Positions 10,247 to 64,000 of a DNA stretch of 64,000 nt are shown here, piece after piece. The DNA is from Yuukianura sp. NJ FZ-2021 (Eukaryota). The notes below the pieces were generated by a model. The model ran no database searches, was not told the DNA's origin, and worked only from the letters and a program-made list of their open reading frames with translations. The position numbers and the translations under genes were made by a program. Numbering within the stretch: the stretch's first letter is position 1; every line of letters begins with the position of its first letter. The stretch spans positions 3,596,001-3,660,000 of the forward strand of contig CM102289.1 of NCBI GenBank assembly GCA_046563655.1, in the 5' to 3' direction.

Positions 10247-11090
10247 TTTACTCCTTCGTTCACAACAAAATATTTGAACTGTTTTTTGAAAGGAAACTAA
10301 AACTGAACTGGAGCTAAAGTTCGGCCAAATTTTTATAGCCATTCATTCCAACACTAAATCAAACAAGCGTTCCGCTTGTTTCAGAACAATGGAACTGATG
10401 GATTAGCTATGGAAGTCGTTTCGGCAATTGAGTCATAAATTCTTTATGTTACGGGTTGAATGAAAACCTTGATTTTGAAATTAAAGCCCTCTATCACTGC
10501 ACCACTTCAAAAAGTAGTAAGTTTTTGAATTTAATGCTAATATTTGAGATTTTTTGAAAAGCATTATAAAGCAGAGCACCTAGGAACGCGCAGTTTTACA
10601 ATTACTTCAAATATTATTGCTGCCGTCGGCTATATAATTAAACTGAGCATTGTCTAAGATATGTCATCATTACAAAACAATTCCGTGTACTTACACGCTC
10701 ATAAATTACTTAAGTTAAAAATTATACAAATACAACATGCGTTATGTACAATGCCGCTAAAAAAAGTATTCCAGAAAAAATAAGGTAACATGAAAGCAGT
10801 TTTTCAATGAAAACCGAAAATCCCAACATCCGGGAAAACCACGCAAGGACATCCAGGAATTAAAGTTGTAAATCTGAAACTGGTGGTTTGTTGTTTTGAA
10901 AATTATGACTGTTAAATACTTTCTACTTCTTGGTGAAAAATTCTGCGGTTACTTTTTGCTCCATTTGCTCGTATTTCGTCTTAACAACATTTAGAACTAG
11001 ATTGCCACATTCAACATTTTACTACAACGAATTTGGTGAATTGTCATTACATTTGTTCATTACGTTCATTAGAAAATTAAGTTCTGAGAC

Positions 11091-14000: not shown

Positions 14001-14217
14001 AAATGTTCGTATATTTATAGTATATCCAAAAAATCTGTGTAACTTTTCCAACAAATTATTTAAACATCAAAATTTAACAGCACGAATTAATTTTTTTAGT
14101 TACGATATAATGAAGAACTGCTGGGCTCTGGAAACGTCCCAAAGGCCGAGCTTTGAAGAACTTGCGCGTTTCTTCCAAGAAATTAGTTACAAAAACCATA
14201 ATATTGTATACATTTAG
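11091..14217 (+). CDS. Receptor tyrosine kinase (PVR/VEGFR-like kinase) with beta-propeller-like + single Ig ectodomain
   Basis: Signal peptide; phase-1 splice 12036/12247 joins the ~315-aa first exon to an Ig exon (ITLKC..IHW..YTC); TM VLIVITLVVLFVLIASISTAVFLFV; QPYD..YEL; GEGQFGIV; HSDLACRN; DFG; LPWRWMAPE; SDVWSYGV; CW..RPSF. Confidence 0.88.
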
Positions 14218-21579: not shown

Positions 21580-22206
21580 GACTAATTTTTAAATCAGAAA
21601 GTGCATTCTCCAACAAAAGTTAAAAAAAAAAATATGTGGCTGTTGTTTCCCAACTTTTGTTGTTTTTTTTTTGCTTAAACTTCAAGGTAAAATCCAACAC
21701 TAGGATATAATCTTTGTATTTGCTTATTCCAAGGCAAACTGATCTTCCTTTGCATTTGCAGTTCTACAAAAAAAAACAACTTTGACTTAGGAATTACTAA
21801 AAGTCGTAAAGCATGCTTGGAGAAACTTAACAAAAGCTGATACTCCCGAGGTCGACTTCTTTTTTGGAAATGAAATATGCAAATTCAATTTAACACAATT
21901 GTTGCACTCGAACTTACATTTTGTATTAATACGACGTCGCCTTTTGCGATTCCAGCATCTAAACTTTAGAACTGCAATCCTGTGGCACTGCAAATTAATT
22001 ATCACTTTAGCATTACTTATCTGTAACACATAAAAAAACACCTCATTGTGGATAACCACTAGCTCCGAGGTCAACAAGGCTACTTTTTGTATATAAAAGC
22101 AAGTTGGTTATGCTAACGATAAGTTTTGCAACATAATTAAACATTCACACTGTACTATCTTTGTGACTTAGCAGTTCTTGGCAACGCCATAACCTTAGCA
22201 TACAAA

Positions 22207-24730
22207 ATGCATTTCTTACTGCAGTTCTTCATATTTTTGCTGTTTTTATATATCTTTTGGAATGTTTTGAGCAAATCCAAGTACAAGTTGCCGCCAGGTA
22301 CTTAATTTTGTTTTACACATTCTTACATCTCAAGATTATTGAAATAATTTTGAAATAATTTCTTTTAAATATTTCCAAGGTCCTATGCAGTTACCATTGA
22401 TTGGATCAATGATTTCCGTACTTTGGGCGGACTCTAAAAACCCCATGCAAGCTTTCGTGAAGATGAGCAAAACGTATGGACCAATCTTCAGTCTCAAACT
22501 GGGATCTGTTACAACTGGTTAAACTAAAATTTTTAATTAAAATTCATATTCAAATTGCGACAATTAAAGTTTAAAACGTAAAATTTCTCTGCAGTTGTCC
22601 TGAGCAGCCATGAACTTTTATCCAGGGTGCAATTTTCAGACAAGTTGTTGGTGCGTTTTGACATGGACGACGTCTGGGTGCTTGAAAAAAGCGCTCAGCT
22701 TCCAATTGGTATGAGTTTCAATTGACAAAACTACAAAAAGGAAGAAATCTTACAAAGTTTATGAGCGATTATCACAATTGTTCATTAAAATGACAGGGCT
22801 TATGCTCAGTTTTAATGAGTTTTGGGTCAAAACTCGTTCGATGCTACAAAAAACTTTGCACCAATGCGGATTTCATTCCAGTTCCAAAATTGAAGCAACA
22901 GTTCTTGATGAAATTGCTGACTTTTGTGAATCACTTCAACAACGCATGACAAATGGACAAGTTTCTTTGAAAATTGAAACTCAGTTTTCTGAATTAGTTT
23001 TTAATAGTATTTGGAAGTTACTGACTGGGAAAAAGTTCACTTCGGAAGATACATCCAGTCGGCAAGCTATTTTCACTTCCATGAAAGATTTTGTCAGTTC
23101 CGGAAGCTATGGCGCCATGTCAGCTATGCTCTTCCCGAAACTAATAAAACTATTTCCAAATCTTACGGGTTACACTAAATATAAACGGAGCTGCGAAATG
23201 TGGCGGAAACAGACAGACGTAAATATTATTACAAAATTTCGCCGTTAAAAACACAATGTCCCTTTTTAAAAAATATGTTTATTTCAGGATATTGTGGCGC
23301 AGCATATTAAAACCACAAATCCGGAAACAGAACCAGACAACTTTCTAAACATATTTTTAGCGAAACTGGATGCCAAAGATTCGCACGAGAATCCTATGAA
23401 TTCCGTTTATACAAGTAAGTCAAAAATATTAATCGATCAGTTCAGTTTTTGAAAATAAAATTCCTATTTCAAAATCTTAATTTCTTTTCGAATTTTATAA
23501 ACACGAACTAATCTCCTATAAGCCAGGAAGCAACTTGGTAGCAGTTGTGCAAGATCTTTTTGGTGCTGGAATTGACACGCAGTCAAATTTCCCAAAATTT
23601 TTTATTCGCTACTTACTACAAAATCCACTGGTTCAAGACCAAATTTATGCCGAAGTAGATCAAGTTCTAGGAAAGTCTCAGTGTGCAAGTGTCGATGACA
23701 TACCCAAGTACGTTTCTGTTCTATTTTGTTCAATTTTTTTATCCAAGGTTCCTTAACAACAAAAAGATTTTCTTTAAAAAGTTGGGTGCTACCTCGCTTG
23801 TTGACAGAAAAACGAAAAAAAAACAAAAATTGGTACCAATTTTAGTTCCAATCCAAAAATTGCTACCAATTCGTATTCAAAATTTAAAAAATTCGGCTGT
23901 ATATTGTTATGACAACGTCGGCCGTATCGTGCCCTGAAATGAAAACACAATTTTTTGCAAAAGCAAAAGAACATGAGGTATTACCCAACCTGTTAAAAAA
24001 ATCAATATGAACAAACCTTGTTTTTTAATGTAGTTAATAGTTTTTTTTCAAATGGTTAGGTTGATTTACACTCAAGCGGTTATGTACGAAGTCCTTAGGT
24101 GAGTATTTATCTACTTCGTGCTTACTTTTGCTAAGACATGATTTGAAAGTTCATTTTCAATTTACATCAGGCTCAGCAGCCTTGTACCTGTTTCCCCTAG
24201 AAAATTAATAGATGACTGGGAAGTTAATGGCTTCCTTATCCCAAAGGTTAGTGACACGTTTTAAAAGCCCTGTTTTAAAAAGTGCCTTACTTTTAATGAC
24301 GCCTTTTAACACAGGGTACACTAGTAGCAGTCAACATTTTTGGAATTGACAGAGACGAAACAGTATGGAAGAACGCAGAAACGTTCAGCCCCGAAAGATT
24401 TCTTTCCCCGCAACGCAAACTCATAAATACCGAGAAAATATTTTCTTTCGGATACGGTATGCATCGATGACTTTGCCTCTGAATTGCTGAAAAATGTTTA
24501 ATTTAAAGAAAACTTTCATAATGATTGTGTTTTTAAACTCTCTAGGAAAAAGAAATTGCATAGGAGAGCACCTTGCGAAAACCAATTTGATGCTGTTAAT
24601 AGCAACTTTGGTTCAGAAATTCAGTTTCCATGTTGATCCAGCATTTGGAACTCCAGCAGACGAAAATATTCTCGGACTATCGCGAGACCCAGCTCCCTTC
24701 AACGTAGTTATTAAAGCTAGACAAATGTGA
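22207..24730 (+). CDS. Cytochrome P450, CYP2 clan (paralogue B)
   Basis: Same exon structure as A; DLFGAGIDT; EVLR; FSPERF; FGYGKRNCIGE. Confidence 0.93.
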
Positions 24731-31687: not shown

Positions 31688-33950
31688 TTAGTAGAAGGGT
31701 GTCAACTTGACAACAAATGGGATTGGTGTCATAGTGAGGGACGGAACGCCAAGTTCTAGCGACGGTTCACGTCCTTCAACAGCTTCCATAGAAAATCTAC
31801 TTACGACACTTGTAGTGAGCATAAACAAAGCAATCATTCCCATGTTTTCACCAGGACAGTATCTCGCTCCTCAGAAATTGAAAAAAAAACACGTTTTGAA
31901 AAACTTAAAAAAAATTGTTCGCTCTTTGAAGAAATTGTATGTACCAATTCCAAAATGTTGGAGTCTGTCCATCTTTGAGTTGTCGAATGTCCCATCCGGT
32001 AGAAGAAGTCTTTCTGGACGAAACACTTCTGGATCCCTCCAATACTTTCTATCGTGAAACATCGAATACATGTTGGCAAACATCATAGTTCCTTTCGGGA
32101 TGTTGTACCCCCCAACCTCAATGTCATCAGTCACCATTCGAGGAGTCCAAACAGTAATGTACGGAGCATGTCTCATCACCTCGAGTATAACTGCTTTTGT
32201 GTAGTGCATTCTGACAAAAAAAAAACAATTCAGAAATTTAATAATTCTGATACCTATAGGTATAGAGTATACTCTAACATGCATAAATAAATTTTAATAA
32301 GTTGGTTTTATGTAAATACTCTGCCATGAGGCTGGAAGGAAACGGAATGTCGCCACCGTGCATGTGCCGCTCCAATTCTACACGCACTTTCCTTTGAACT
32401 TCTGGATACAATGTTAAGTAGTACAGTATCCAAGTGGAGGCGGTGGCTGTCGTATCTGAGCCACCAAGAAACAAATCCATGAGGGTCAGGATGAATTGAT
32501 CCTCTAAAGACAACAAAAAGTATATTATCATAATTAAAGTAAAATGGTTCAAAAAAATAACTTATTATTCAAATTCGTAATAAATCTGTATTCAACTGGC
32601 CATTGAAAATTGTGTCTTGTTCCCCTTTACGACTTCCAATTTCGTCCAAATACGCTTCAATGAAGCTCTCTGGTTCCGTTCGTCCTTCTCCTTCTCGTTT
32701 TTGCTTAGCTTCTTCTACCAACTCCTGCATGAGAAAGCAAAAGTAAGATTGTCATTATTATCCACTACACAATGGCTACCTTCTGGCTTGCTGGAGGCCA
32801 ACAATTTGAAAATTTCAGAAACTATTTTTATTTATTTATTTATTATTTTTTTCATAAGGCTCTCTTTGGGCCCTAAGCCCATAGAACCTAACTATTTTTA
32901 TACGAGACGAGCTTTATGAAATTCTTGTTTGCAGGCTTACCCAAATGAATTCTTTGACATCTCGATGAATGTTGTAATGTTCTCGGTACCCACTCCATAC
33001 AGGAAATATTTTGAGAAATGGGAACGTACTCAGCAGATTTTTGGTTGTCAGGGATTCAAATATACGTTGGCTCAGTTGAAGGTGGCGCTTGATCTTTGAG
33101 CTATGCGGGTCAAACCGATAGCCGCCAACTGATGCCCAGAGAATGTTAATGGTACAACCTGCGATACGGTTGACGTCCACTTCCCACACACCGGCAGATC
33201 CTTTGATCTTGATTTCAACTTCATCAAGAAGGTCTTTGACCTCATGATGAATAGTTTCGTCCATCGTGTACCTCTTACCAAATCCAAACTGACGCAGAAG
33301 TTCATAGTGTACTTCTTCTGTTGGTGCCACACATCGCCATATGAAAAGATAATTCCTGTACAATATAGGTATATTATTTTATTAATATATAAATAAATAA
33401 TGAAATAAAGATCATGTTTTTATTTGCTGTACATAATTCTTTTGTTCATAATACTTTTGTGACATACCTAAATTTTTATAATCGTTTCGTTGTTCAAAAT
33501 AATCAAACCGGAATCTTTCCGTGTTCGTCTCCTTTCGACGGTATAAGTCCTTCATCATTTCAAAATCCGACACAACCACTGAAAGTTCAAAATAAAAATT
33601 TAATAAGTTCAAAATATGAAAAGTGAAGTTTTGTAAAAGCTACCTGCGTAGTGAACACCGAAACCTAGCGACATAATTCCACCGTATTTTTTTGCAAGGC
33701 CGCTCATCTGTAGATGGGGGTATTTTGAGTTTTCCATGAACATTGCCGGAAGACTTCCAACAATCGGCCATCGAACGGGACCTACGTAAGGAAAATTCAC
33801 AAAATTGCTTTCTTTTTTCTTCAATTTTTCAATTTTGAAAATTTTCCCTTTATTACCCGGTGGTAGGTTTTGTTTTCTACCAAAACTTTGTTTGAACTTC
33901 CAAGCAAGAAGGCATGTCAAAATGAAAACTAATGCAACTACGTACATCAT
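31688..33950 (-). CDS. Cytochrome P450, CYP2 clan (distinct from paralogues A-C)
   Basis: LPPGP; DLFLGGSDTT; EVMR; FRPERL; FGIGARYCPGE. Confidence 0.92.
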
Positions 33951-35340
33951 TGTGGCTTGGGATGCTTCCCTGGAACTAACCTATCCTAACCTGAAGTGAA
34001 CTAAAAACTGAACTTTTGTATACTTCGCATTTTTTTTTATTTCCGACAATAATTTTTAGTAAATCTTGATTACACCAGGGGTGCCACCTTGATAACCTTG
34101 GAATTGGCATTTTGTGGATCCTTTATTGTCTATTGTATCCTTTGTTCAGTTATGGGTGGCTTTTGTTTCTTTCGACCTTGTTTACCAAGACCGACGTTGA
34201 AGTTGTTTTTAGCATCGTTACATAAATCAAGGTTGGTAAACAAAATTGTTTTGCTTGAACCGGTTCGTAAGTTTGTAAATTTTGTTAAAAAACTAACAAA
34301 ATTGTTAGGTTAGGTTAGTTTTCTTTTTTGTGGCAATGAGTTGAACGTAATTTAAATGGCATTAGCTAGGTTACCTCAGCCTGCTATTTCGTTGCAACAA
34401 GGAACATGGATAAATCACGTTGAGTTTATTTCACCCTGGACAATTAACGTTCGTTTGTAATAAGCTTGCGTTTTTCACTTCTAAGATATTCATCAAGTGC
34501 TCAGAGAATGTCACCGATCGCTCAGGGAAAGCTATACACATTCCAAAATTTCATTTATGAAGGGCTCCTAAATCTTTATCTTAGGTTTGTTTTCAATTCC
34601 TCCCAATGGCTTTCTCCGACCGGTCGATGACTATCTCCTAACCTCACTTAACATATTTCACATAAAATGCGTCGTCTTTACTATAAAAATGTAAATCTCA
34701 GTGCTTTGAATTTCATGATCTTCACAGCTTAACTGAAGTTTAAACTTAATTTTAAAGTTGTGATATGGGCAGTATTGTCATAACTATAAACACTCACGGA
34801 GTTAAAATGAAATTGTAAACAAATGAATTAAATTAACGACATCAATTTTTTTTTTGTATTCTTGAAAAATATGATTTTACTATGTACAGAGTATCTTTTC
34901 TTTTTGTTAAACACGGTCTGGCTTTTTCTGCTTCCACGTGGCAAAAAGTTACGATCAAACGCAGCTTTTTTTTTCTCAGCCATTTCTTGTGCAAATGCTT
35001 TCGGCATTTAAAGCACTCTTCTCAGAAAGTTTTTTAATGATAACCTAACCTAAAAAGAAAATTTGAATTAGTGTGTCATTATCAATTTGTTACCATGATA
35101 TCAGTACCAATGTAAAGTACAGTGACGCGGCATACAAAAAAAATGAGTCCCAAAGGTCGACAGGCATTTTGGAAAGAAAGAAAACTGAAAAAAAGAATAG
35201 TCTGATACATAAAGGTCAGCAGATTATCATTGTCTGCTCAAAGACTAATTTAAATAAATTCACTAGTTACTTTTAGTTACTAGTTGTGGTCTCATTTTAG
35301 AAATCGAAAGTCCTAACTTCACGACAACTGTAGCAATACG

Positions 35341-38036
35341 ATGATTATTTTACTGCAGTTTTTGTTGTTTTTGATATTTTTATATATTTTTTGCAACTTT
35401 TCTAAAAAATCCAAGTATAGATGGCCACCAGGTAAAAAATTTGAATTCAAAAATATTTGCTATGACGATTGTGTCTGAAGCAATAATGCTCGTTGTTTTA
35501 GAACCTATTCTATATATTTTTCTTTATATAGCATTTATTTGTATCAATATCTATTAACATTTATATAATATATTTATTTAAATATCAAAAATATTTTTTA
35601 TCAGGGCCGGTGCAGTTACCAGTAATTGGCTCCGTTATTTCGGTGCTGCTAGCGGACGTTCGCAAACCTTGGACGGCATTTGCAAAACTGAGTAGAAAGT
35701 ATGGGTCCATTTTCACGGTTAAAATTGGATCAGTTAGAATGGGTAAAACAAATTTAATATCTTTTTTAATATCTAAGTTGTATCTTTCATCACAGTTCGC
35801 GACAATAAAAATTTAAAAAAAAAAAAATCTTTTTTAACAGTCAATACAAATGGTTTTCTTTTTAAAAGTGAATTTATTTGTTACAGTTGTGGTAAGCAGT
35901 CATGCTCTTCTATCCAAAATAGAATTTTCAGATAAGTTGTTGAGCCATGTTGACACCAACGACGTCTGGCTACTGGAGAAAAGTGATCAAATTCCACTTG
36001 GTAAGCTTTAACAACATTTCAAAACAATATCAAAAGCTCGCAATCAAATTTAAAAAGAAAATTTGCGAATAGCAATAAAATAAATCATTGCATAAGTACA
36101 GAATCCAACCACATGACAAAAGAAATTAAAACTGCTACGCATAAAATTTTCAAAACCAAACGTAGCCACTAAAATTAATTCCCCAAATATCTAAACACTG
36201 CATAATAAAAAAAGTTACGATTAACATAACACACATCCGTTTTTTCTAAATCCAGGACTCCTGTTTAGTATTCCGGAATTCTGGAACACCACGCGGTCGA
36301 TGGTGCAGAAAACTTTGCACCAGTTTGGTTTTCACACAAAATCCAAAATTGAAGTGGCAATTGTAGAAGAAATTGCGGAATTCTGCGAGTCATTAAAACA
36401 ACGCATGACAAATGGTCAAATTTGTTTAGAAATGAGGAGTGAATTTATTGAAGTTTTTTACAATATTGTTTGGACATTGCTCTCCGGGAAAAAATGTACG
36501 TTAGAAGATGCTCCAGTGAGGAAAAATCAAATTACCGCAATGCTCGACTTTGTCAGCTGCGGAAATGCTAGCGGAAAAGCAGCAATCATATTTCCAATAC
36601 TAATTAAAATGCTCCCAAATCTGATGGGTTACACTAAACTTAAGGATTGCTGTCAACGGTGGAGGGAAGTTATTGGCGTAATATATTTACTAAATATGTT
36701 ACACTTATAAATTTCTAAAATTCAAGGCAATTTTTGCTAATGGTTGTTTTTGTTTAAACTGTGATTTTCAGAAAACTGTTGCACAACAACGCAAAACTAG
36801 AAATACTGACCTTGAACCAAATAATTTTCTGGATACATTTTTATCCAAAATTGACGCAACTGTGTCTCCAAACAATGTTTTGGACACAATTTACACTGGT
36901 ATAAATTTTATATATTTACATTGTAAACATTTCCAAATGTAGTATATTGCAACTACACATAATCTGTAAATAATATATACTGTAATACACTTACAAATAC
37001 CTATAAAGAGATTTTAATATTCGTTTTTTGTTTACACTTTATCAGAGGCCAACCTGGTAGCAACTTTGCAAGACCTCATCGTAGGTGGAACTGATACACA
37101 ATCTGTTTCCATAAATTTTTTCGTTCGCTACTTGCTCCAAAATCCGGAAGTTCAAGAGGAGCTGTATGCAGAAGTGGATCAAGTACTCGGGAAATCTCGT
37201 TATGTCAATGTTGATGACATCCCTAAGTAAGCATAATTGTTTACCTTATGCAAATTATGTAAGTATTATAAGTCTAGTAAAGAATTGTTATTGTTTAATG
37301 TTTTGTCTTTGACATTAGTTTGGTATATACTCAAGCAGTGGTGACCGAGCTTCTTAGGTAATGCAGCGATATTGTGACAACTAATATTGTACTGTACAGT
37401 TTCTCAAAACTATTCCGGTTGAGCGGCTTAATGTGAAAAATTTTTCTAGGATTGTTTCTGCCGTACCAATTGCTCCAAGGAAGCTATTGGATGACTGGGA
37501 ATTCGATGGTTTTCTAATTCCAAAAGTTGGTGTTTTCAACTAGAAGAAATTCTATATAATATATTAAAAGTAATTTAGTGAAATACTTTCAAATACAGGG
37601 CACTTTCATAGCCTTGAGCATTTGGGGAGCTAATAGAGACGAAACGGTTTGGAAGAATGCCGAGACGTTCAACCCAAGGAGATTCTTGTCACCAGACAAC
37701 AAACTGATCAACACAGAAAAATTATTTACTTTTGGATTTGGTAATTGCGCATAAATTTACTCAAAAAGTTCATAACACTACTATTTTCTCAGTATGCCAA
37801 CCCAAATATCAATGTATTTGAGTTTTGCAAAAATGAAATCGTGAAAATTTTTAGGGAAAAGACGATGCATAGGAGAAACCCTTGCAAAAACAAATTTGAT
37901 GCTGGTAGTACCAACGCTGGTTCAGCGCTTCAGTTTTCATGTAGATACGGCATATGGAGTACCTTCTGATGGAGATGTACATGGATTTTCACGAGATACG
38001 ACGCCATACAATGTAATCATTAAAGCAAGACAATAA
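35341..38036 (+). CDS. Cytochrome P450, CYP2 clan (paralogue C)
   Basis: Same exon layout as A/B; DLIVGGTDT; ELLR; FNPRRF; FGFGKRRCIGE; ends IKARQ*. Confidence 0.93.
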
Positions 38037-42438: not shown

Positions 42439-43202
42439 GATCAAAGTTATTAGAGCAGTAATATCCTTATCAATGTATAATAATTTTTTTTTAAACTAGA
42501 AAAGGCTGGAATAAACTTCTTTGAAACTTTTGGTTTTCCCTGCTTGTTTCACATGTTTGGAGTTAAAAGCCGTGCAAAGTATGATTTAATGATACGAGAC
42601 AAACGACTATTTTTGTTTCCAGCTCAAGGTTAAGTGAATGGCATTGAAGCCAAGAAAAAAATGAAACCAGTTTTATGGTTAGGCTACAACAGCAGATTTA
42701 ATTTTGTGATCACGAAACTCCATGCAATTTCCGCATGACTCACTGCGTCCCTAATTAAATTTCGCCTGTATTTAAATTTTTCCCACCCTGCAAGTAAGCG
42801 TACGCAACTTAGTCCCACCAACATCATCCTGTTAAGAAACAAAGTATATCTTTGAGGGAAACAAAGACAGCTAGGGGTCCTAGCGTAAACAATTTTATTT
42901 AAAGCGCATAAACTAAATGATAGAAATGAAATGATAGAAATAGGCTAAATGGTTATTGTATAGGAATGAGGCCATTTGGCAATTAGTTTATAATTGACAT
43001 TTTCACACAATCTTATTAGCATATTAAACCGAAGGAATTCTTTATTTGTTTGAGTTATTGTTAAACAATTCACGAAAATTTGAAACAGGACTGATGAAGT
43101 ACGGGTGGACATTTCGAGTTTTATTTTCAAATAATTTTTGAAAACCGTAAATATTCCGCATAAATTATCGGATTTAGTTTATGTTTCAGCACAAAACACG
43201 AT

Positions 43203-44271
43203 TTAGCTGGAACACCAATAACCTGTAAACCAGTTTTTGATGTTAGATTTTTTTCAATTCCAATTCTGAGTAATTTCTTGAAAAACTTACTGTCGTAGCA
43301 GGTATCCTCCTCTATGAGATTTCGGAACCAAGACTGATCCCACGCTTCATCTTCGTGCAAATAGCCACCTAGGCTTTTTGGTAGAATTTCTCGTGGTACA
43401 ATCTTGTCCAATCCGTCGCTGCCTCTGTGAAACGTTATTCTTTGACGTATTTTATAGGAATAGAACTTTGATGCAATTTTAAAAATTGGCCAAAACAGCC
43501 GTGATACGCTAAGATAATGAATGCCACCAATTCGCAGAGGAAAAGTATCCTGTTGATGTATCAAAAACTTGACATACATTCGAAAGACATTTTTTTTGAT
43601 TTTTTTGAAACTACATAAAACCGAAACTAAATTTAACTTTCATTAGTAACTTTATTTATTTTTATACCGTGCCCAGCTTCGAGGCGAACTGGATTGCAGA
43701 GTACGTAAGGGCTCTGGCATGTTTAAACGACAGACCGGATAAATCCACGATGCCTTTTCCTCCATGAATTTGGATGTCCTTGTCCTTAAGCGCTTCTTCA
43801 GTGCAAAATGCAATTGCTAACATCAGTTTTTCCAAGGATACTTCACGTGGATCCCAGTTTTGAAAGGACACGCAGAGTACTCTGACATTGTTCACGTGAC
43901 TTTTCAGGAGTTTGAGTGCGCCGGAGTTAAAAATGTGAGTAAATTCTGAAGCTCGGATTCCTTTGAACAAGTCACTTCTAGTCTGAATGGAATCGTAGTA
44001 TTTACATATGGCGCTAATTGCGCTCTCGACGTTGTACTTTTTGGCGCGTATGAATTTTGCCAAAAATTCAAAATCAGTTCGTGGAGATATACCGTCTATA
44101 TTTTCTAGAAACGAAGAAAGTTAAGTTGATTTGAGTTAAAAAAATATATAAATACTTTTCTAAAATAACGAAGAGGTTCGGTTTACCAAATATTTGCTGC
44201 CTGACGATTTCTACCAAATCATTCAAATTTTCTTCAGATGCACTGGTACAACTTTTTGAAAACTTGCTCAT
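43203..44271 (-). CDS. CRAL-TRIO (alpha-tocopherol transfer protein/clavesin-like) 1
   Basis: FLAKFIRAKKYNVE; QIHG; VDLSG; FPLRIGGIHY; LPKSLGG. Confidence 0.9.
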
Positions 44272-45340
44272 TTCTCAAATTTTTACGTATACGTTTAGTT
44301 AAGTGCTTTTAAATTCTCATAAATCTGCGTAATTTTCTCGTTTTCTGCCAAGATTTGGTACAAATTTAACTGTGGCGAACTTAATTTTATATGGACTGAA
44401 AGAATTTGCTACAAAAGAAATATAACTGAAAGCTCCGCAAGTTCCAGTGGGAAAAACTTGGCTTCAATATTATCACCTCGTCATCGTAACAACAGTATTA
44501 ACCGTCTAAACTCAAATGCTAATTTACCGCGCAGTGATTAAAAATTTTACCTAACAAGGTATAATTTCAAAAGTTCCCAGCGATCTCAGCGATATACGTC
44601 TAGCGTCAGTGGTTTTAGTTCACTTCGTTAAATTTTTATCTAATTCTTCACAGTATTTAGATCTTTTCCTGAGAAAACACGATTTAACTTAAAAAAAATG
44701 ATTTTTTTTTCAATGTTCCAGGGTGTAGAAAAATTAAGCCATAGACCCAAAATAATTGCAACTCTCAACGTTTATTAGAATGTCTATAATTTTTGTGCTT
44801 CATTATGGCAAATTCCAGGTTTCCATTCCATAGATAGACAGCAAAAACTTGCTGATTGTATTGTTGAGAAATGAAAAAATAATGAAAATCTGCATAAAAC
44901 AAATGAATAATGACATCACATCCTGTTCATATCGGCAGACTATACTAAATAAATGTTATGCCAATCGTATAACAGTGCGGCAGCGAACTTCACAAAACAT
45001 TGGTGAGCGACCTTCTTGCCGTTTTGGAAAGTGCATCTCTCATTGCTCCATTTGTTGGAATAGCTGGGCTGCCAATAACCTACAACAAAGAGAAAAATTA
45101 TTGCTTTATTTAGGTATTTTACATAAATCGGATAAATAATTTACAATAATACTTATAAAATCGTACTGTCGTAAGTATTCTTTTCAAAAAGATTTGCAAA
45201 AATAGACTTATCACGCTTTATCTTCATCGTCTTCATTCACGTCAATTGTTTCGTCGGACCTGCTTCGAAAATGCCAACATATCACCAATGAATGATCAAA
45301 TTGTGTTCATAACGGAAATTAATCAAATTGATAGGTATAC

Positions 45341-46426
45341 TCACATCGGTTTCCAATAACCTAAAGAAAAATAAGGTACGTTTGAACAGAATAGTTTGTT
45401 ATAATTTGTCACAATAAATGCAAATCATTGATATTTTTTGAACTTAGAGTCTCACTGTCGTAGCATGCATCCTTTTCCACGAGGTTTTGTAAAACGTACT
45501 GATCCAATGCTTCATCTTCTTCCAATTCGCCACCTAGCCTTTTTGGCAATACTTCCTGCGGTACATAATCATCCAATCCCGTGTGCTCTTTATGAAGGGT
45601 TAATCTTTCACGCAGTTTTCGAGGAAAAAAGCTTGATGCAATTTTAAAAATTGGCAAGAATATCAATGGCGTATTTACATAATGAATCCCGGCAATACGT
45701 ACAGGGTATGTGTCCTACGTCAAGATACAAGAAGAAAAAAACAAGAAACAAGTTGAAATGGACGGAAAATTTTCAATCGTGTTAGCATTTTGGATTCTTT
45801 TTTAATTACCAAAATCAGTTTCACAGCAAACTTGACACCGGAATAGCTGAGTGCTCTCACATGCTTAAATGATAGCTCAGATAAATCAATAATGGCCTTG
45901 ATTCCGTAGATTTGAAACGTATGATCCAGCAAGGCCTCTTCAAGGTAAAATGCAGATCCTAATATAAACTGCTCTAAGGAAATGTCACATGGATCCCACT
46001 TATTCATGGACACTAAAATTACTGTGACCTTGTCCACATCGCCTTTGAGGATCTGAAACGATCCGGACTCAAATAGGCGCGAAAAATCAGAGACTCGAAT
46101 TCCTTTGAACAGGTCACTTCTAGTTTCGATTGATTTGTAGTATTTACAGATGGCACCAACAGCTTCTTCAGCTCTGTACTTTTTTGCACGGATGAATTTC
46201 GCCAAAAATTCGAAATCAGTTCGAGGCGTTGTGGTATCAATCTTTTCTGTAAAAAAATCAAAATCTCGGATGTGTAGGTTTGAATATTCCTGAAAACTGT
46301 TTTTAAAACAAATTACTAATTATCGTAAGAAATAAGTATACCCAAAATTTGCAACCTAACAAATTCCACCAGTTGATCCAAGTTCCTTTCTCCACGGTCA
46401 ATATTAGTGGTAGTTGCTGAGGTCAT
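45341..46426 (-). CDS. CRAL-TRIO protein 2
   Basis: As above; YPVRIAGIHYVN; LPKRLGG; ends SYWKPM*. Confidence 0.9.
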
Positions 46427-47417
46427 GACTCGCTAGCTAAAGGTACTAGGTAACTAATTCGACATTTTTTATAAGGACGTTTTTAATAACCAACTTAACA
46501 GTGTAAAAAGAGAACTAATGCTAATGGAAACCAGGTAAAACCTGTTACACAACTGATAATTGAGCCACTAAATTTTATTGCGGAAAGTGGTGCGAAAAAC
46601 TTCAATGAAAAACTTTGTTAAAATAATATTGGCGTAAAGCTACCAAAAGGTTAGGTTTGACTTTACTAATCATTAATGGGGCTCCCACAATATTACAAAG
46701 CCTTTAGATACTAAGTCATTTGCAGATCTGTATTTTGTAATGTGTGTTTGCTCCAGAAGTGACAAGAATTGCGCAAAAACGCTTATCACTATCAGCCATC
46801 TACTAAAGCACTATGGGTTAGTCAAATTTAAACATAAAAATGTAATAATAATTTTTTCGTTCCGGTACACAACTCTCATCAACAGAAACGCAATTAAATT
46901 TGGTGTTAATCTTTGATTTTCAGAGTTCAGAACAGTACATACTTCACAATTTCTTCCACTAACCATTTCATGGCGGTACTTTGGATTGTTTATTTACATT
47001 TAAAAGGCTACACTTATTGTACTGACAAATAAACGGTTGTAAACCGGTGTACGTAAGTAGCGGAACATGGCTGCTGGTCGGCCAGACAGACAAGGTGGAG
47101 TCATAAAGTAGCTTCAGCCACTTAATAAATTACTGCAGAAGATCTGTATTGTGAATTGGGATACTCACTTGCCTTGATCCCAATCCAGCAAAACATTGAG
47201 GACAACACGGCATGAAATGTCACAGTTTTGTGTTTGTGACTTTCATGATTTTATAAACTTAGCTTATTCTCAACTGTTACAAAATGAAAGCGACAATTGG
47301 ATTACTACAGGTACAACATAATGCAAAAATTTAAAACAACTCCTGGCAGAAGAATGCACTCGTGTTTGTCAGCCAAACACGAAATGAATGATGCTTTCTT
47401 TTGTTTATCGTAGTGTG

Positions 47418-48466
47418 TCATTCCTTCGCGTTTGCGGGCTTCCAATAGCCTGAAAACAGTCGCAAAACTTTTTACTCTTCTTTTTCATTTTGAAATTTTT
47501 TTAAAAATCTTACTGTCATAACAAGGATTTTGTTGCATGAGATTTAAAAGCACCGAGTTGTCCCACGCCTCATCTCCTTCCATCAGTCCACCTAAATGTT
47601 TTGGAAGCAACTCCGGTGAAATAAATTCCAGCAATGTTTTCATATCGGAATGAAACTTGATCCTGTCACGAATTTTTTTCGGAAGAAATTTTAAGACCAT
47701 TGTATAAATTGGCCAAAATATTGATGGGGTATTAACAAAATGAATTCCGGCAACTCGTAGTGGATAAGTTCTCTACAAAAGGAACTGAAAATTAAATTCT
47801 TGAGTGGCTTTTTTAAACAAAAAAAAATGAAAGTTTTTGGTTTTTTACCAAGCTATAATTCATGAAGAACATTAAGTGCTTATAGGTCAACTGTCTGACA
47901 TGGCCGAACGAGAATCCAGACAAATCTATGATTGCCACGCCACCATGAATTTGAAACATTGGATTCTTAATATCCTCTTCAAAGACAAATACCGAAGACA
48001 GCATCAATGTTTCTAGAGATACTTTCCTTGGATCCCAAAGGTCAATGGAGAAACACAACAGAGGTACATTGTTAATTCGACCTTTGAGGTGTCTCACAGG
48101 CCCTGATTTGTATACAGATTCAAACTGCGCCGCTGTAATTCCCTCTAACTTGTCAAGGTTAGATTGAATCCCATTGTAGTATCTCTGGATCGAACAAATG
48201 GCAGCTTCTACGTTGTACTCCTTTACACGAATGAATTTTGCCAAAAATTCAAAATCTGTTCGTGTCTTTAGAACAGAATCGGTTTCTATCAAAAATGGCA
48301 ATAGGAAATACTGTTTTTAGTTTTTAAATACAGTACTAAACCGGTTTCTTAATCGTAACCTTTTAGTTTATCTATTTCGTATTTCACCTTGCAGTCGATT
48401 TTTGGCAGTTTCGACCAGTTGCTCTAGTTCTGTTTCCAAGTTTTGCGCCCCCATTTGTATTGCCAT
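47418..48466 (-). CDS. CRAL-TRIO protein 3
   Basis: FLAKFIRVKEYNVE; QIHGGVAIIDLSG; RDRIKFH; LPKHLGG. Confidence 0.9.
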
Positions 48467-49041
48467 GTTGTTCTAAACAATGAAACTTATGATGTGACTT
48501 GTGCTTCGAGCGCAACTAGTTAATTTTGTTTTGCATTAATTGAGATGGTGGCTTCGGGTTAAATTACTCTAAAAAAAACGTGGGAAAGTGAGAAAGCGAT
48601 CAACCCAACTTTTAGTTCTTTTTACAAGAATTCCGAAGGCCATTGGACAATTCTGTCGAAAAAGGTAGTTTTTGTCTGAAACTTACTTATATTGAAATTG
48701 ATGAAAGATAACTAAAAAAGTAACTCGTACTTCTAATTCTCGTTAAGACAATAATTAAACTTCCTTTTTCAAATAGAAAAATGCCAATTTTTTTTGTTTC
48801 ATTTCGCGATCCGCCCGTATTTGACGGGGTCCAAACGATCTCCATTATAAGAAATGGGCGGCCATTAGTCAATTCCCAGTACAAGGTGCATGGAAAATCT
48901 AAAAATAAACTCTCCCCAAAACGCGAAAAACAAAACGTATAACTTGTAAACTCGTATAAATAAATGTGGATATGATACTTTTCAAAAATCAGATTTTCAT
49001 TTTAAATATTAATGCAGCATTATCCGCTTCAATTATACCGA

Positions 49042-49138
49042 TAAATAAACTTCTTGCAAAGCCAGTATAAGTAAGTATCGTCAGATCAATTATAGAGAAT
49101 TCCCATACAGAATATTGCTGACCTTTACCTCCGATATT
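49042..49138 (-). mobile_element. Terminal remnant of the element at 8842-9848
   Basis: TAAATAAACTTCTTGCAAAG..TAAGTATCGTCAGATCA.TTATAGA matches 8842-8935. Confidence 0.75.
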
Positions 49139-49819
49139 GATACTGCAATAATTGTAATAATCTACGAATAATTGCAATAACTAGGTTTATTATAATTTCT
49201 ACATTTTTTGCACATCATTTATTTCAACTAAAAACATTTAAATAAATTCTGGTTCTGTAAATAGACAACAAAGCTTGCTTGATTTATTGTGTGTAGTGCT
49301 GTGCATTAGTGCAATCAAAATCGGAATAAAACAAATAAGTAAATGAGAATGAACTCACAAAACCTGTTCACCATCAACATACTAAATGCTATACTATACT
49401 GGAATGTTTCGCCAATCGTACGACGCTGTAATAGCCTAGCGAACTTCAAAAATAAAGTGTTTCAAATTTTGAAAAGCCCATTCCTCACGTTCTATAGTTT
49501 CATTTGTTGAAGTACCTAGTTGGGCTACCCCACTATAAAAAAAAATAGTGCTCTACGTTAGTTTATATTTTACATAAACCCAGATATTTAATTTAAATTA
49601 CAATAATAACTTATTGTAATTATAAGGATACAATCGTATTGTCTTAACGAGTGTTTTTTGCTGCAAGATGTGCAAACACAGGCTGATTCCACACCTCATC
49701 TTGCGTCGTTCAAGTCAATTGTTGCGTCGGAGCTGTTCCAGAAATGTCAAAAGATCAAGAGTGAATATTCTGCTGAAATGGTGTTCCTAAACTGAAACTA
49801 ACGAAATCGGTCGGTATAC

Positions 49820-50962
49820 CTACGTCGCTTTCCAATAACCTAAAAGAAAACAAGATTATGTGAGAAAACTAGCTTCTCATAGTAAATTCAATTGGAAATT
49901 ATAGAAATTTTTTGAAATAAAAAAAAATTAAAGTCTCACTGTCGTAGCATGTATCCTTTTCCATCAGATTTCGTAACACATGCGAATCCCATGCTTCATC
50001 TTCTTCCAATTCGCCACCTAGACTTTTTGGCAATACCTCCTGAGGTACATAATTTTCCAATCCTATGTGATCTCTATGAACCGTTAACCTTTCACGGAGT
50101 TTTTGTGGAAAAAAACTTGATGAAATTTTAAAAATTGGTAAGAATATCAATGGAGCATTTACATGATGAATTCCAGCAATTCGGACAGGGTAGGTGTCCT
50201 ATAAGTATCAAATAAAAAAAAACAAGGTATAGATGTTAAAATTGATGAAAAATTTCAATAGTACTTTCATTACTCAACATTGTGTGTGTTTTTTTTGTAA
50301 TTACCACAACCAGTTTCACAGCAAACTTGATGCTGGAGTAGCTGAGTGCTCTCACATGTTTAAATGATAGCCCAGACAGATCAATGATGGCCTTGGCTCC
50401 GTGGATTTGGAAAGTAGGATCCAGTAATGCTTCTTCAATGTAAAATGCGGATGCTAATATCAACTGCTCTAAGGAGATGTCACACGGATCCCACTTATTC
50501 ATGGACATTAGAACCACGGTGACCTTGTCCGCGTCACCTTTGAGGATCTGAAGCGCGCCGGACTCAAATAGGCGCGAAAAATCAGAGACTCGAATTCCTT
50601 TGAATACGTCACTTCTAGTTTGGATTGATTTGTAGTATTTACAGATGGCGCCAACAGCCTCTTCAGCTCTGTACTTTTTTGCACGGATGAATTTCGCCAA
50701 AAATTCGAAGTCAGTTCGAGGCGTTGTGAAATCAATCTTCTCTTTAAAAAATCAAAATCCAAGAAGTGTAGTTTTGAATATTCCTGAAAACTGTTTTTAA
50801 AAACAAATTAGAAATATAAGTTATACCCAAAATTTGTGACCTAACAAATTCCACCAGTTGATCCAAGTTCGCTTCTTCGCTCTCAACGGTAGTGCTAGTT
50901 GCTGAGGTCATGACTCGAACCTTAGGTGCACTAGCCCCCTTTTTAGTCTTTTTTCTTGGCAT
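49820..50962 (-). CDS. CRAL-TRIO protein 4 (recent duplicate of 2)
   Basis: Near-identical translation to protein 2; flanks also similar; Lys-rich N-terminal extension. Confidence 0.9.
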
Positions 50963-58736: not shown

Positions 58737-59978
58737 TTAGCTTAGCCTTCTGTACATAACTAGGAAAGTCATCATGTTGGCTAAAACTGCGCCAATGATT
58801 CCCATAGTTTCTCCCATTTCAATTTTGAATTGGAGTGAACCAGCCAATCCAATTGGACGGACAGATTTGAATTTGGCGCGCCAATATTTTCTAAGAAATT
58901 TGTTTTTGAAAGTTGGCGCATATCCACTCCATGCCTTCATCTTCTGCCACTTATCAAGGCATTGTGTAGAGTAGTCACAGATCATTTCACCCTTCTTGAT
59001 CATTGCCAAAATTGCACATGAAATGAATACATTTTGAATTGTGAGCACAAGGTAGAAAGACTTGAGGTTTCTGTTAATGCAAAGTGCGGTTCCACTGGAG
59101 ATGAACCAGATGAGGAAGTACTTCAAAGTAACCAACACAGATCCAAAAACATTGTTGAAAATGTTCAACAAGATGTTGACTTCTGCGTACTTCCTGAAGC
59201 CTTCTTGAGGACCACATTTAATCAGGGTTTGTAGCATGGTAGAGTAGGCCGTTGTCAGGGCAACCAGTTCGACTCCCTTCAGGAACCATTTGACTTCAGT
59301 GAGGCACAGGAACACTCCCACGAAGAGAAGGCTAATGTATGTCAACGCTAGAATTACAAAGTCCGGGAGGATTCCAAAAAGTACTACAGAATTAAACGCG
59401 CCAAGAAATAAACCGAAATCGGTATTGAGAGACAGTGGAGTTAACACTGATACGAAAACGGCACACGCGGCGTCTCCAGCATAAGATGCATGGACCACAA
59501 CTGCTCTGCCTTTTGGTATTCCTAAAATTTAAAAATTCTTGTGAAAATTTCTAAACAGAAAACTGTAGTTCCAAAATTCTAAATTTCTGTAAGTTTTTGA
59601 ACATGATTTACCCTTGTATGAGTAAATTTTTTCGCTTAGTTGTAGAAAAGTGTTGAGGACTTGAACAGTTTCTTGAGCATTGTAGAAATTAGCCAAATCC
59701 AACAAAATGTTGAATCCTAAAATTGGCCACGATAGGAAAAGGAGCGTGATAAAAGTAGGATTCAACGCAACTTTAACTGCAAAAAATGTACACAACATCG
59801 ACGTGGCGAAGGTCACTATGTCAAAGGTCAGGAAAACACAAAAACTTTTCCAGTGCTTCACAGATTTGTCCATGATAAATTGTCCATTTTTCGCATTCCA
59901 CTGAACAAAGGAATGGAACAAAGCGTGGGCCAGGAAATGGGCCAACTGAAAATACTTGAACTCAGCCTCACACAACAT
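58737..59978 (-). CDS. Arthropod gustatory/odorant chemoreceptor-like 7TM protein (2 exons), intact
   Basis: Two hydrophobic ORFs joined by a GTAAAT..TTTTAG intron; YAEVNILLNIFNNVFG and basic loop KFKSVRPI before the final TM. Confidence 0.7.
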
Positions 59979-61484
59979 TTAAAGTCGATAATAAATTTTT
60001 ACGCAAGCTGAAAATTCTTCAGTAGAAACATCATGAAACAAGAAACTGGAGCTTTTGAAAGAAGCATCTAAATTTTGAGACTTTGAAATCGTAAAACACA
60101 AAATTTTTAAATAGTAAAAAACAAGCTGAAATTGCAGAAAAACACAAAATCAATTGCTGAAAAACAAAGTTTAATTGCAGGAAAAATCAATTACTGCAAC
60201 TTGGGAGTAACTAGGAAAAATTGACTTTTACTGCAATAAACGTTTCTGCAATTAAAAACACTTTTCGCCATTGCTTTAATCGGCGAAAAGTGTGTTTTTT
60301 AATTGGTGCGGCGTTTTTTAACGCGCGAAATTTTAAAATAATTTTGTCACCATTTCTCCATAAAGAAGAGAAGAACGAAGTCGTCGTTGTTTTTAGTCGG
60401 ATTGTGACGATGAAGCGGATCTCTCGGTACAAGCGAAGAGATCCGAAGAATCTGATATTGATATGTGCGAAAACGATGATGAGAATACTTAATTTATACA
60501 GCACACTGATTTTTAACAAAAATTAAATTAGTTTCGATTTAAAATGTGAGGAAAATTATTGTTTCTAAACGAGCCACAGAAATCGAAAACTAATTTTAAG
60601 CTCACGCTTCTAATAATATGGAATTTACGGTAACCAAACGTAACCTGTTTTTGAAATGGTTCGGATATTGGAATTTTTATTTTTACACAGCCACATCGAC
60701 ATTGAATGTTCTCATAATTTAAAAAAGTAGTCGAAAGTATTTCCATAACCTTCCAAATAATTTATTTCCCAAAAACTCTTCAAAATGGTATCCAATTTGG
60801 AATTTAGAAATGACTTCAATTGCCCGAGAATATTTGAAATGCTGTGAAAGCTTGGCTTTTAGTGGAACATGAGATAGGCGGGTATTTGCAAATGAGTAAT
60901 GCAGAAGGATTTCATGAAAATTGATCCAATTTTGAAACCACCAATGTTTGTTTATAATATCGAAATATAAAACAAATAGTTCACCTGATTTATTTAGCTT
61001 TAGAAAAGTGGCTTTATGTGAGTCATGGTTGGAATCTTCTAAAAGAACAATAGAAAGATTACATATTTTAGGAAGAAATCAAATTGGATCAAACGCCACT
61101 CAATCTTTCTCTTACTTATCATGTCAACGTTTTCATCTCCCGAATTGAATAGATTACACAACCAAACTAATCTCCTTTCGGTTATAACATCATGCCAGCT
61201 TCAACTCTTAGGTCAGTTCTTGATTTCTTTGGTATTTCAACTTAAACAAAAATTTCGAACGTTTTTCGAGAAAAACATTGGACTCCATAATGCGTTTCCT
61301 CTTCTCCAATCAAATCCCGCTGCTAGCAAAGCCCATCTTTTTATTTTTATTTTTTGCAGTTACAATTTCTGCCATCGAAACCAACGGTAAGAGTTATAGC
61401 AGCATCATAAATAAAATATTATTTTTAAAAGTAATTATAAAATTATAGTTATTTTAATTATTAATTGTGTATGCAATACCATTT
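59429..61484. repeat. Right copy of ~2.05 kb inverted segmental duplication
   Basis: Reverse complement of 1131-3185. Confidence 0.97.
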
Positions 61485-63449
61485 ATCATCTGTTATATAA
61501 AATTAGCGTTATTTGTTATTTGTAGAAGTTAAGCTCAACCTTCTGTTCAGCGGAACATATGCCACCTACTTCTTGAGCTCAGAAGCGGTAAACTTTAAAA
61601 CTGAAATGTTATAAAATTCAACATTTTACATTTTTGTTTGTTAATTTGTCTTTAGACCGATGCAATCACGGCCCAGGAGACATGCAGAGCAAACAATAAA
61701 GCACTGAAACTCCTTTCAATTGAAAATGACGAAGAATTTGAAGAAATTTTACCATTTCTTACTAAAACAATTGGTTAGACAAAACCTGAGATGAAAATAG
61801 ACATGTATTTTGACTTGTTTTCTGTGCGCAGGCGTTGAGGACATTTGGACAAGTGGAGTAGAAACAATTTTTCAAGATTCCGCAGACTTTCTTTGGTCCA
61901 GCGTTGCGCAGCCTCTGAGGTATACCAATTTTGCACCAACTCTGGAAGAGCTCCTGCATGGTAACCATGGGCGACAGCGTCGTGGAGTACATGGCGTCTA
62001 CCCTAATTGTTCTTGCGACAACGAGTGCACGGAGACACCGTCTTGCGACCGTTTTGACTGCACTGTAACTGGAGAGATTTGCGCCGCAGAAGAACCAATA
62101 TGTTCCGAACCGGGCGAGCCAGACTGTTTCCTTATTGATCCCCTACCAAATTGCACCGTGACGTGTCCCGAATGCACAATCAAACGCGGAAAATGCGAAG
62201 TAGGTTAAACTTTTTTCTAGTAAAAACCTTACAACGTTAAAAAGTGAAATTTGATTTCAGAAATACTCAAGTTCTCAGAAATTCCAAAAGCAATAACTAA
62301 GATTTTTAATTTTTTTGTATTCATAAAATTCTCTTTACAATTTGAATTTTCAGTTGATTCAGCCAGTTTGCACAGTAACAGGAACGCCAAATTGCACAAC
62401 GACTACGTCGACAGATTGCACATTAATTCCTCCGGAATACGAAGTCGTACCAGGCAAATGTTCGTTGATCCAGCAACCCTGCGCCGTTACGAAGCCAGAA
62501 GAACCGTGCAACCGCCCTGTCAACTGTACTTTTCAATACAATCCAAGCTGCGAAGCGGGTCACAATCGACCGGTTTTTGGAAGTTCAAATTCAGAATACA
62601 ATCTGCCAAAGAACTGCTCCATGAATTGTCCAGGCGGCCGATGCTCAAATCCGTGTCCCATCAACGACAAGTGCTGTAGAGTATTCAACTGCGTTCCTGA
62701 TTTGATTTGCCAGGCTCCACCAGGTGAAAAATCAAATCAAAAAAATTTTGTTTAAATTTTTAGTTGCTAAAAGTATAATTTCCAACTTTAGTCGTTTGCC
62801 CTCCGCCAATCTATCACTGTCTCCCCGCTGAACTCGTGAAAATCAGTGAAGAGAGACTTGACTGCGGTGAACAAGAAACTGTTTGTGACTCGCCGACTGT
62901 AGAGTGTACTAAGGTTTGTAACATTTGAAATGAATACCGAAATCGAACAAATTGTTAAATGAGTAGTACTTAATTAGTTAAAATATGTTATTAAAAAAGG
63001 TTCAAAAGAAATGCGAAGAAGATGTCATAACCTGTCCACCGCCAAAAACCGTTTGCACTCCTGCTGTTTCACATTGTACCCGACGTAAGTAATGTTTCAA
63101 CAATGTTTTTTACCACCCAAGATTTAGAACTAACTTTTGCACAATAACTTACACTTGATTTGTAGCCAATTTGAGCTGCTCAAAACCAATTGTCAACTGC
63201 CAGAAGCCTACGATCGACTGCCCGCCTCTCCCAACGTGTGAGATACCGCCCAGTTGCTATAGTAACCAGGGGTATCTGACTAGCTCCGATTGCAACTGTC
63301 GCCAAAAACGAGAAATCAAAGACAAAGGAGCTCTGGTGGCTGCCAAATGTGTGTCACTTAAGAAATCCATGGGATACAAATGGGTTGTTGAAGAGTGTAA
63401 CAAGGCCAACTACTTTATTTGTGAAGAGGCTCATTCAGTTTTCTTTTAA
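61290..63449 (+). CDS. Secreted split C-type lectin with ~309-aa Cys-rich insert; exons 61290-61386, 61526-61587, 61656-61773, 61832-62199, 62354-62723, 62792-62913, 63000-63084, 63166-63449
   Basis: All seven introns are GT-AG and phase-compatible; CTLD N-half (YFLS..AQETC..LLSIENDEE..IWTSG..FLWSS..YTNFA) and C-half (KCVSL..KWVVEEC..NYFICE) are separated by RQRR-[Cys-rich]-RQKR. Confidence 0.88.
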
Positions 63450-64000
63450 GTTTTCAACGAATAAAAATTTTTAGACTCTAAAAATTTTAACACTTTTAAG
63501 CATGTAAATTCCAAAAAAAAACAAACAAATATTTAGTCTGTTAGCCTAGTGCAAATAAAAAATATATAAAAAATTGAATTTATTCCTACGTTATAAATCC
63601 TACGTTTAGATAATCAATTCTAGGACTCTGCCCAGAGTCCATTTTCATTTGGAAAAATTTTCCAAACCAGCCTCTTCATTATGAACTATTTTCTTTTCAT
63701 CGCAGACCGGGCATGCAAAAACCTATACTTTTATAATAAATAACGCAAAAGGAATCAGTTCAAGGATAAATTCTGTTAAAGAAATTTGTTATGAAATATA
63801 ACTATAGCTATAACTACAACAATAATTATAAATAAAACAATTTTTTAACTGAATTTCATTTTAGGAACAAGTTTTTTTTTCAATTTATCATTCTGATAAA
63901 AATGTGAATAGATTATGAGGGAATCATATCGATTCCCAAGAAATCCGATACACTAAGAGGCTTGATTTACGTTACTCATCTGTAGATGGGCAAAATCCAG

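Follow-up and report, generated by a model that had tools for sequence, protein, structure and literature searches.

Few extracellular scaffolds are used as widely as C-type lectin-like domains (CTLDs), in which ligand binding evolves in the long loop; in known CTLDs the points at which the chain enters and leaves this loop are neighbours. In precursors of the proinsulin and relaxin type, two chains are linked by a disulfide, which has already formed when convertases remove an internal connecting segment with basic sites on either side. The precursors of legume lectins and of ricin-type proteins, and PawS1-type precursors, in which a peptide is buried in a carrier protein, lose an internal segment once they have folded. 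Hydra NOWA is a secreted structural protein with a CTLD and many short minicollagen-type Cys-rich domains, and the beta-helical antifreeze proteins of beetles are built of 12-residue T-C-T-x-S-x-x-C-x-x-A-x repeats. Here we describe a predicted gene (61290-63449, forward strand) in a stretch of 64,000 nucleotides of Yuukianura sp. NJ FZ-2021 (assembly GCA_046563655.1, contig CM102289.1, positions 3,596,001 to 3,660,000 of the forward strand); this whole stretch is called the window below, and all coordinates count from its first letter. The predicted protein consists, in order, of a hydrophobic leader, the N-terminal part of a CTLD (N-part), the motif RQRR, a Cys-rich insert of 309 residues, the motif RQKR and the C-terminal part of the CTLD (C-part). 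The reading that we prefer, and hold tentatively, is that the locus is a genuine gene, encoding a secreted nested-domain CTLD precursor in which the long loop has been replaced by a Cys-rich module, and that the precursor is probably cut by convertases of the furin type.

The protein resembles the CTLD superfamily in having the four canonical Cys in order in what appears to be a secreted short-form domain, the loop being preceded by WIGL-, W-x-W- and Y-x-N-W/F-type motifs and followed by CV..W..C..F-C-E. It differs from the superfamily, and especially from the compact or non-Ca2+ CTLDs, in that 309 residues with 44 Cys stand in place of the long loop, that convertase motifs are found at both ends of the loop, that EPN, QPD and WND are lacking, and that no piece of it scores above the Pfam threshold. 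With proinsulin and relaxin the likeness is one of analogy only: here the connecting segment would be a large folded Cys-rich module and the chains would form a lectin fold, and there is no sequence relationship. The legume lectin, ricin-type and PawS1-type precursors are likewise analogues only, as they have other folds and depend on asparaginyl endopeptidase in the plant vacuolar pathway. In Hydra NOWA the Cys-rich domains come after the CTLD, not within it, and have another Cys pattern, and we detected no similarity between NOWA and the present protein. The regularly spaced Cys and the C-T-x-T strands of the insert recall the beetle antifreeze proteins as a look-alike lead only; the insert has a period of 7 rather than 12, is Pro-rich, lacks a PDB sequence match and does not show the 12-residue repeat. 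The first-pass annotation, made from the letters of the window, had recognised this architecture in no described family. In the accessible portions of the subscription-free literature, including PMC514892, we likewise found no account of a CTLD that a Cys-rich domain interrupts or that convertase sites bracket, and the only other instance found is an unnamed protein, P0002, which is discussed below. A conserved loop turned into a disulfide-rich domain of ~300 residues with flanking cleavage motifs would represent a novel way of nesting domains and, if the proposal is true, possibly a new maturation route for large Cys-rich secreted proteins; if the sites are uncut, the nested architecture would still be unusual, mainly for family specialists.

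The gene model was predicted from the genomic sequence by enumerating combinations of GT and AG sites near the visible frame breaks. Four open models resulted, which differ by 1-3 residues and only at the exon 1 donor or the exon 2 acceptor, and the one with the best donor was taken. It has eight GT..AG exons and a single open frame of 501 residues with 48 Cys, and an AATAAA polyadenylation-type signal (63460-63465) lies 11 nt past the stop. The exons have GC contents of 36-51%, as against 18-36% in the seven introns, which are 58-154 bp long; with such short, AT-rich introns the gene is animal-type in appearance. The eight-exon structure proposed at the outset was thereby borne out as an open 501-residue frame by the enumeration, the GC contrast and the AATAAA signal. 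Five DNA-type sequencing runs from two studies contain 35-87% of the sampled words.

Exon 1 (61290-61386) supplies the ATG and a hydrophobic leader (32 residues, phase-1 donor), whose mean Kyte-Doolittle value over residues 14-27 is 1.9; no later hydrophobic span is found, the best 19-residue mean being 1.05. Exon 2 (61526-61587) would encode the first CTLD strand (..YFLSSEA); its basis is the splice sites and the open frame only, and neither of these two exons is covered by the homologue. Exon 3 (61656-61773) carries the Cys of CTLD helix 1 (C1, residue 63), LLSIE and helix 2. The first part of exon 4 (61832-62199) contains the CTLD motifs IWTSG, FLW and YTNFAP and then the N-terminal linker (61832-61971), after which RQRR, the first furin-consensus site (residues 140-143), is encoded at 61972-61983. 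The coding region of the insert (61984-63299) takes up the rest of exon 4, exon 5 (62354-62723), exon 6 (62792-62913), exon 7 (63000-63084) and the start of exon 8, together with introns 4-7. Exon 8 (63166-63449) completes the insert and continues with RQKR, the second furin-consensus site (63300-63311, residues 453-456), and with the C-terminal linker, the CTLD C-part and the stop codon (63312-63449), the C-part including C2 (KCVSL), C3 (EEC) and C4 (FICE). The two sites lie exactly where the first-pass annotation had put them, and the segment between them, for which it had counted 309 residues and about 44 Cys, has exactly 309 and 44. As both junctions between CTLD and insert fall in frame within exons, namely exons 4 and 8, the insert is not removable by exon skipping alone; judged by length, only the pairs 5+6 and 6+7 could be dropped in frame.

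An exhaustive HMMER search with exon 4 among 1.84 billion representative proteins returned two matches at E<=0.001, P0001 and P0002, and only the latter is a true relative. P0002 has 439 residues and carries no name; P0003 is a one-residue variant of it, and the two come from contigs of 2.6-2.7 kb. Between P0002 and the spliced protein, 172 of the 388 aligned positions are identical (44%), 42 Cys are in register and the collinear layout is the same: P0002 runs from the end of a CTLD N-part (..YIW..SYTNFA) through an insert of 341 residues with 45 Cys to KCVSM..GYKW..EEC..NYFICE. The first 12 Cys spacings are the same in the two proteins, and both inserts start and finish with C-x-C. The N-part encoded by exon 4 aligns with the start of P0002, whose first residue is an internal Met halfway along the CTLD N-part, so that the first ~100 residues are missing; presumably an intron or stop upstream truncated a gene call based on open reading frames (ORFs). 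No segment is better conserved between the two homologues than the C-part, with 20 of 27 residues identical; the insert has, in its last third, 57 identities in 113 positions. A multi-row alignment of P0002 with all exon pieces was mis-registered by heptad repeats and was not used.

P0001, a protein of 935 residues with repeats of ~57 residues, matched exon 4 with E=1e-9 in 12 short stretches; it was taken as a compositional false positive and rejected. Word-indexed protein searches with exons 4 and 5, in which longer proteins were sought, gave no match, and P0002 as the query of such a search retrieved only itself. In the ESM Atlas, P0002 gave only weak leads (0.76) to arthropod clusters named "C-type lectin (fragment)". 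No relative was found in two scans of JGI metagenome contigs, in viral contigs or in the contigs of prokaryote genomes.

The flanking segments are, with high confidence, the two parts of a CTLD. Exactly four Cys lie outside the insert, at residues 63 (AQETC), 469 (KCVSL), 485 (EEC) and 493 (FICE), and they have the order and the contexts of CTLD C1-C4, with one before the insert (C1) and three after it (C2-C4). The motifs A-x-E-x-C, LLSIE, IWTSG, FLW and YTNFAP precede the insert and KCVSL, YKW..EEC and NYFICE follow it; the predicted protein thus has the order known from short-form CTLDs, to whose C1-C4 the four Cys correspond. Profile and PDB sequence comparisons were scored on exon-sized pieces of this protein, with a gathering cut-off of 22.6 bits for Pfam Lectin_C (PF00059). 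The C-part matched this profile at positions 80-106 of 107 (E=0.0017, 19.5 bits), and its PDB sequence matches at E<=10 were to CTLD proteins in seven of seven cases, at their C-terminal ends: the PLA2 receptor, factor IX/X-binding proteins, botrocetin, convulxin, NKG2-D and an IgY receptor. For the 50-residue N-part of exon 4 the single PDB sequence match was the mosquito C-type lectin mosGCTL-3 (E 0.29), in the equivalent W..Y-T-N-W-A stretch, and the CTLD identity of the N-terminal half is thus suggested by its motifs and one weak PDB match. When a profile of both homologues was compared with mosGCTL-3, the N- and C-terminal stretches matched in collinear order, with no more than a few residues of the lectin between them; this puts the point of insertion exactly at the long loop. 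Exon 3, the N-part of exon 4 and the C-part, co-predicted as separate chains, scored 0.29 as against a mark of 0.34 in a comparison run without controls, a result that weighs on neither side.

A CTLD split at its long loop had been claimed for this locus, and motif order, the C1-C4 pattern and the collinearity with mosGCTL-3 support that claim. The proposed anatomy of a signal-type leader and two CTLD halves also stood; Lectin_C applied to the pieces left the C-part below threshold and the N-part undetected. Neither this protein nor P0002 has an EPN, QPD or WND in its CTLD parts, as had been noted for the former, and a single EPD tripeptide is located inside the insert; the protein is therefore not to be classed as a sugar-binding C-type lectin.

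The placement of the basic motifs points to processing. In each of the two proteins the whole chain contains only two R-x-x-R motifs, one on each side of the insert: RQRR and RQKR in the present protein and RNPR and RYKR in P0002. RQRR, RQKR and RYKR are full furin-consensus sites (R-x-K/R-R), and RNPR is a minimal R-x-x-R. R-x-[KR]-R would be expected 0.043 times in a protein of this composition; among 20000 shuffles, 801 had at least one site and 13 at least two, and none had a site in each linker (analytic estimate 1.75e-6). The two bracketing furin-consensus sites first reported are thus present and their placement is non-random. The linkers are the least conserved parts of the alignment, with 6 of 23 positions identical and 14 gap columns on the N side and 4 of 15 identical and 8 gap columns on the C side, and retention of the motifs amid such drift fits selection on the motifs themselves. 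Conservation of both sites in relatives had been named as a check. In the one homologue a full site is kept on the C side, where RQKR and RYKR align column for column, and on the N side the motif is the minimal, displaced RNPR. Taken together, the layout of the homologue and the presence of a basic motif in each of its linkers support processing at the boundaries of the insert. What the analysis shows directly is that the spliced frame is open, that the parts follow one another in this layout, which one distant homologue shares, and that the basic motifs are not placed at random.

The insert contains 44 Cys, 43 Pro and 28 Thr in its 309 residues. The spacing of the Cys is mostly C-x6-C and is most regular in the last third, with C-x-C at both ends, and there are six N-x-S/T sequons, five of which are N-C-S/T. 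No Pfam, PDB-sequence or ESM Atlas match to the insert was found; exon 5 gave one irrelevant match in the PDB sequence search (E=1) and no usable match in the ESM Atlas. An AlphaFold2 model of P0002, made with no alignment, had a mean predicted local distance difference test score (pLDDT) of 38.4 and a predicted template modelling score (pTM) of 0.20, values too low for the model to be used, and in its residues 121-171 short strands recur every 7 residues at a pLDDT of only 53-69.

From this arrangement we infer secretion, the fold, the pairing of the disulfides, cleavage and the identity of the functioning product, along the following lines. The leader would carry the chain into the endoplasmic reticulum. 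The insert, ~310 residues long and rich in Pro and Thr, would fold independently into short strand-turn units of mostly C-x6-C spacing, and the terminal C-x-C at each of its ends could pin its termini together. It would enter after the YTNFAP strand and exit before the C2 strand; in a CTLD the long loop begins and ends at adjacent points, so that the insert need not keep the lectin fold from closing about its base, and the two CTLD parts would be joined by the canonical disulfide between C1 in the N-part and C4 in the C-part. A convertase of the furin/Kex2 type would then cut both linkers in the late secretory pathway, yielding a two-chain, disulfide-linked compact CTLD (~115 + 45 residues) and a separate Cys-rich, probably N-glycosylated polypeptide. 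That the CTLD would serve as a "folding clamp" for its cargo is speculation, and a candidate alternative role for the insert is that of a giant connecting peptide of a two-chain CTLD. A more far-reaching version, which we hold doubtful, is that the locus represents an undescribed kind of precursor, in which a disulfide-rich polypeptide is made as the loop of a lectin, has its ends held by the lectin fold while ~22 disulfides form and is then excised by convertase cuts in both linkers, leaving a two-chain compact CTLD, with either or both products active. The insert of such a precursor might possibly be a strand-turn ladder or a solenoid with C-T-x-T faces, and its maturation would follow the logic of proinsulin at the scale of a domain.

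Several observations weigh against the proposed precursor. Exon 3 and the N-part match no Pfam family and neither does full-length P0002, no piece reaches the gathering score (best 19.5 as against 22.6 bits), no single E-value among the CTLD matches of this protein's pieces is below 0.001, and the two PDB sequence matches of exon 3 are both to unrelated proteins, none of them a CTLD. These results would suit a resemblance of motifs by chance or convergence, the product being a Cys-rich secreted protein with unrelated terminal extensions. We regard this as highly improbable, because all seven PDB matches of the C-part and the sole match of the N-part are to CTLDs at equivalent positions, the order of the four Cys and of the motifs agrees with that of the family, and it is the C-part that is best conserved between the homologues. 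Regarding the gene model, exons 1 and 2 are backed by splice logic alone and exon 1 lies within a recent duplication; in addition, a donor-like G|GTAACC after 61960, just before RQRR, and four in-frame AGs at 63313-63331, just after RQKR, would permit a splice that gives a compact CTLD of 174-180 residues. The insert might accordingly be skipped in the mRNA, or the CTLD parts and the Cys-rich exons might belong to different transcripts. Such an artefact or isoform seems very unlikely to us: the cryptic acceptors are purine-rich, look weak and have no pyrimidine tract; neither a start codon nor a leader belongs to the Cys-rich exons themselves; each junction between CTLD and insert lies in frame within an exon; and P0002, an independent gene prediction on another contig, unites the insert with the two CTLD parts in a single chain.

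The homologue also provides arguments against the proposed precursor. Only a single homologous lineage is known, and two lineages are a thin sample of conservation; the RNPR of P0002 is minimal, has Pro at P2 and falls within an indel of 14 residues, out of register with RQRR; and the Cys count of its insert is odd (45), so that a disulfide to another partner is possible and clean release is not guaranteed. The odd Cys count and the weak motif on the N side would fit a nested domain that stays in place, either as one chain or as cut chains that remain together, in which the CTLD scaffold presents the Cys-rich module, for example in a structural or adhesive matrix, and the motifs are exposed linker residues that play no part in release. 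The conservation of the layout in P0002 is equally in keeping with a retained insert, and a Cys/Pro/Thr-rich segment with its sequons is typical of extracellular structural modules. We consider retention possible, if somewhat unlikely; it leaves unexplained why the sole R-x-x-R motifs of both proteins are found in drifting, indel-rich linkers.

The first exon of the split-CTLD gene lies in an inverted duplication, of which one arm occupies 59465-61484 and the partner 3165-1131 at the other end of the window, the two being 94.8% identical over 2038 bp. The arm contains the first exon of the upstream gene, the intergenic or promoter region, and exon 1 with 98 bp of intron 1 of the split-CTLD gene. 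A second copy of exon 1 (1324-1228, reverse strand), identical in 30 of 32 residues, can splice in phase to an ORF of a conventional long-form CTLD (438-1, reverse strand), which matches Pfam Lectin_C with E=2e-4 and 22.4 bits, just below the cut-off. This second CTLD gene (1-1324, reverse strand) runs off the start of the window, and its visible part is without a Cys-rich insert. BLASTP of the N-terminal half of the split protein against this other CTLD gave a collinear match that is not significant (E=0.23). As judged from the sequences, two predicted CTLD genes, different from each other and lying at opposite ends of the window, have in common a leader exon that was duplicated recently, and the split architecture, with 44% identity to its homologue, is far older than the duplication. 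Intron 1 is 139 bp long in the split gene as against ~800 bp in the second CTLD gene, which hints, and no more, that the split gene holds the original copy of the leader.

The duplication also copies the 149-residue first exon of a gene that looks multi-span (59529-59978, reverse strand, and 2654-3079, forward strand). The hydrophobic ORFs at these two places (58737-59978, reverse strand, 263 residues; 2654-3079, forward strand, 149 residues) match no Pfam family at E<=0.01 and may belong to a lineage-specific family of membrane receptors.

Elsewhere in the window, a receptor-kinase-like gene (11088-14020, forward strand) begins with a 333-residue ORF that has a weak match to the Rol-3 beta-propeller (E=0.0038, below the cut-off); the ORFs after it have kinase-like motifs, called by eye. 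ORFs resembling cytochrome P450 are found at 19834-23248 and 36225-36710 on the forward strand and at 31871-33980 on the reverse strand; that at 22715-23248 matches p450 with E=8e-10, and the rest were judged by eye. A tandem array of about four similar ORFs with the common motif TDFEFLAKFIR.K.Y occupies 43127-50751 on the reverse strand, and the sole one tested (45720-46319) is a CRAL/TRIO protein (E=1e-6). An exon of an astacin-family metalloprotease (6251-6718, forward strand) is matched by Pfam with E=3e-22.

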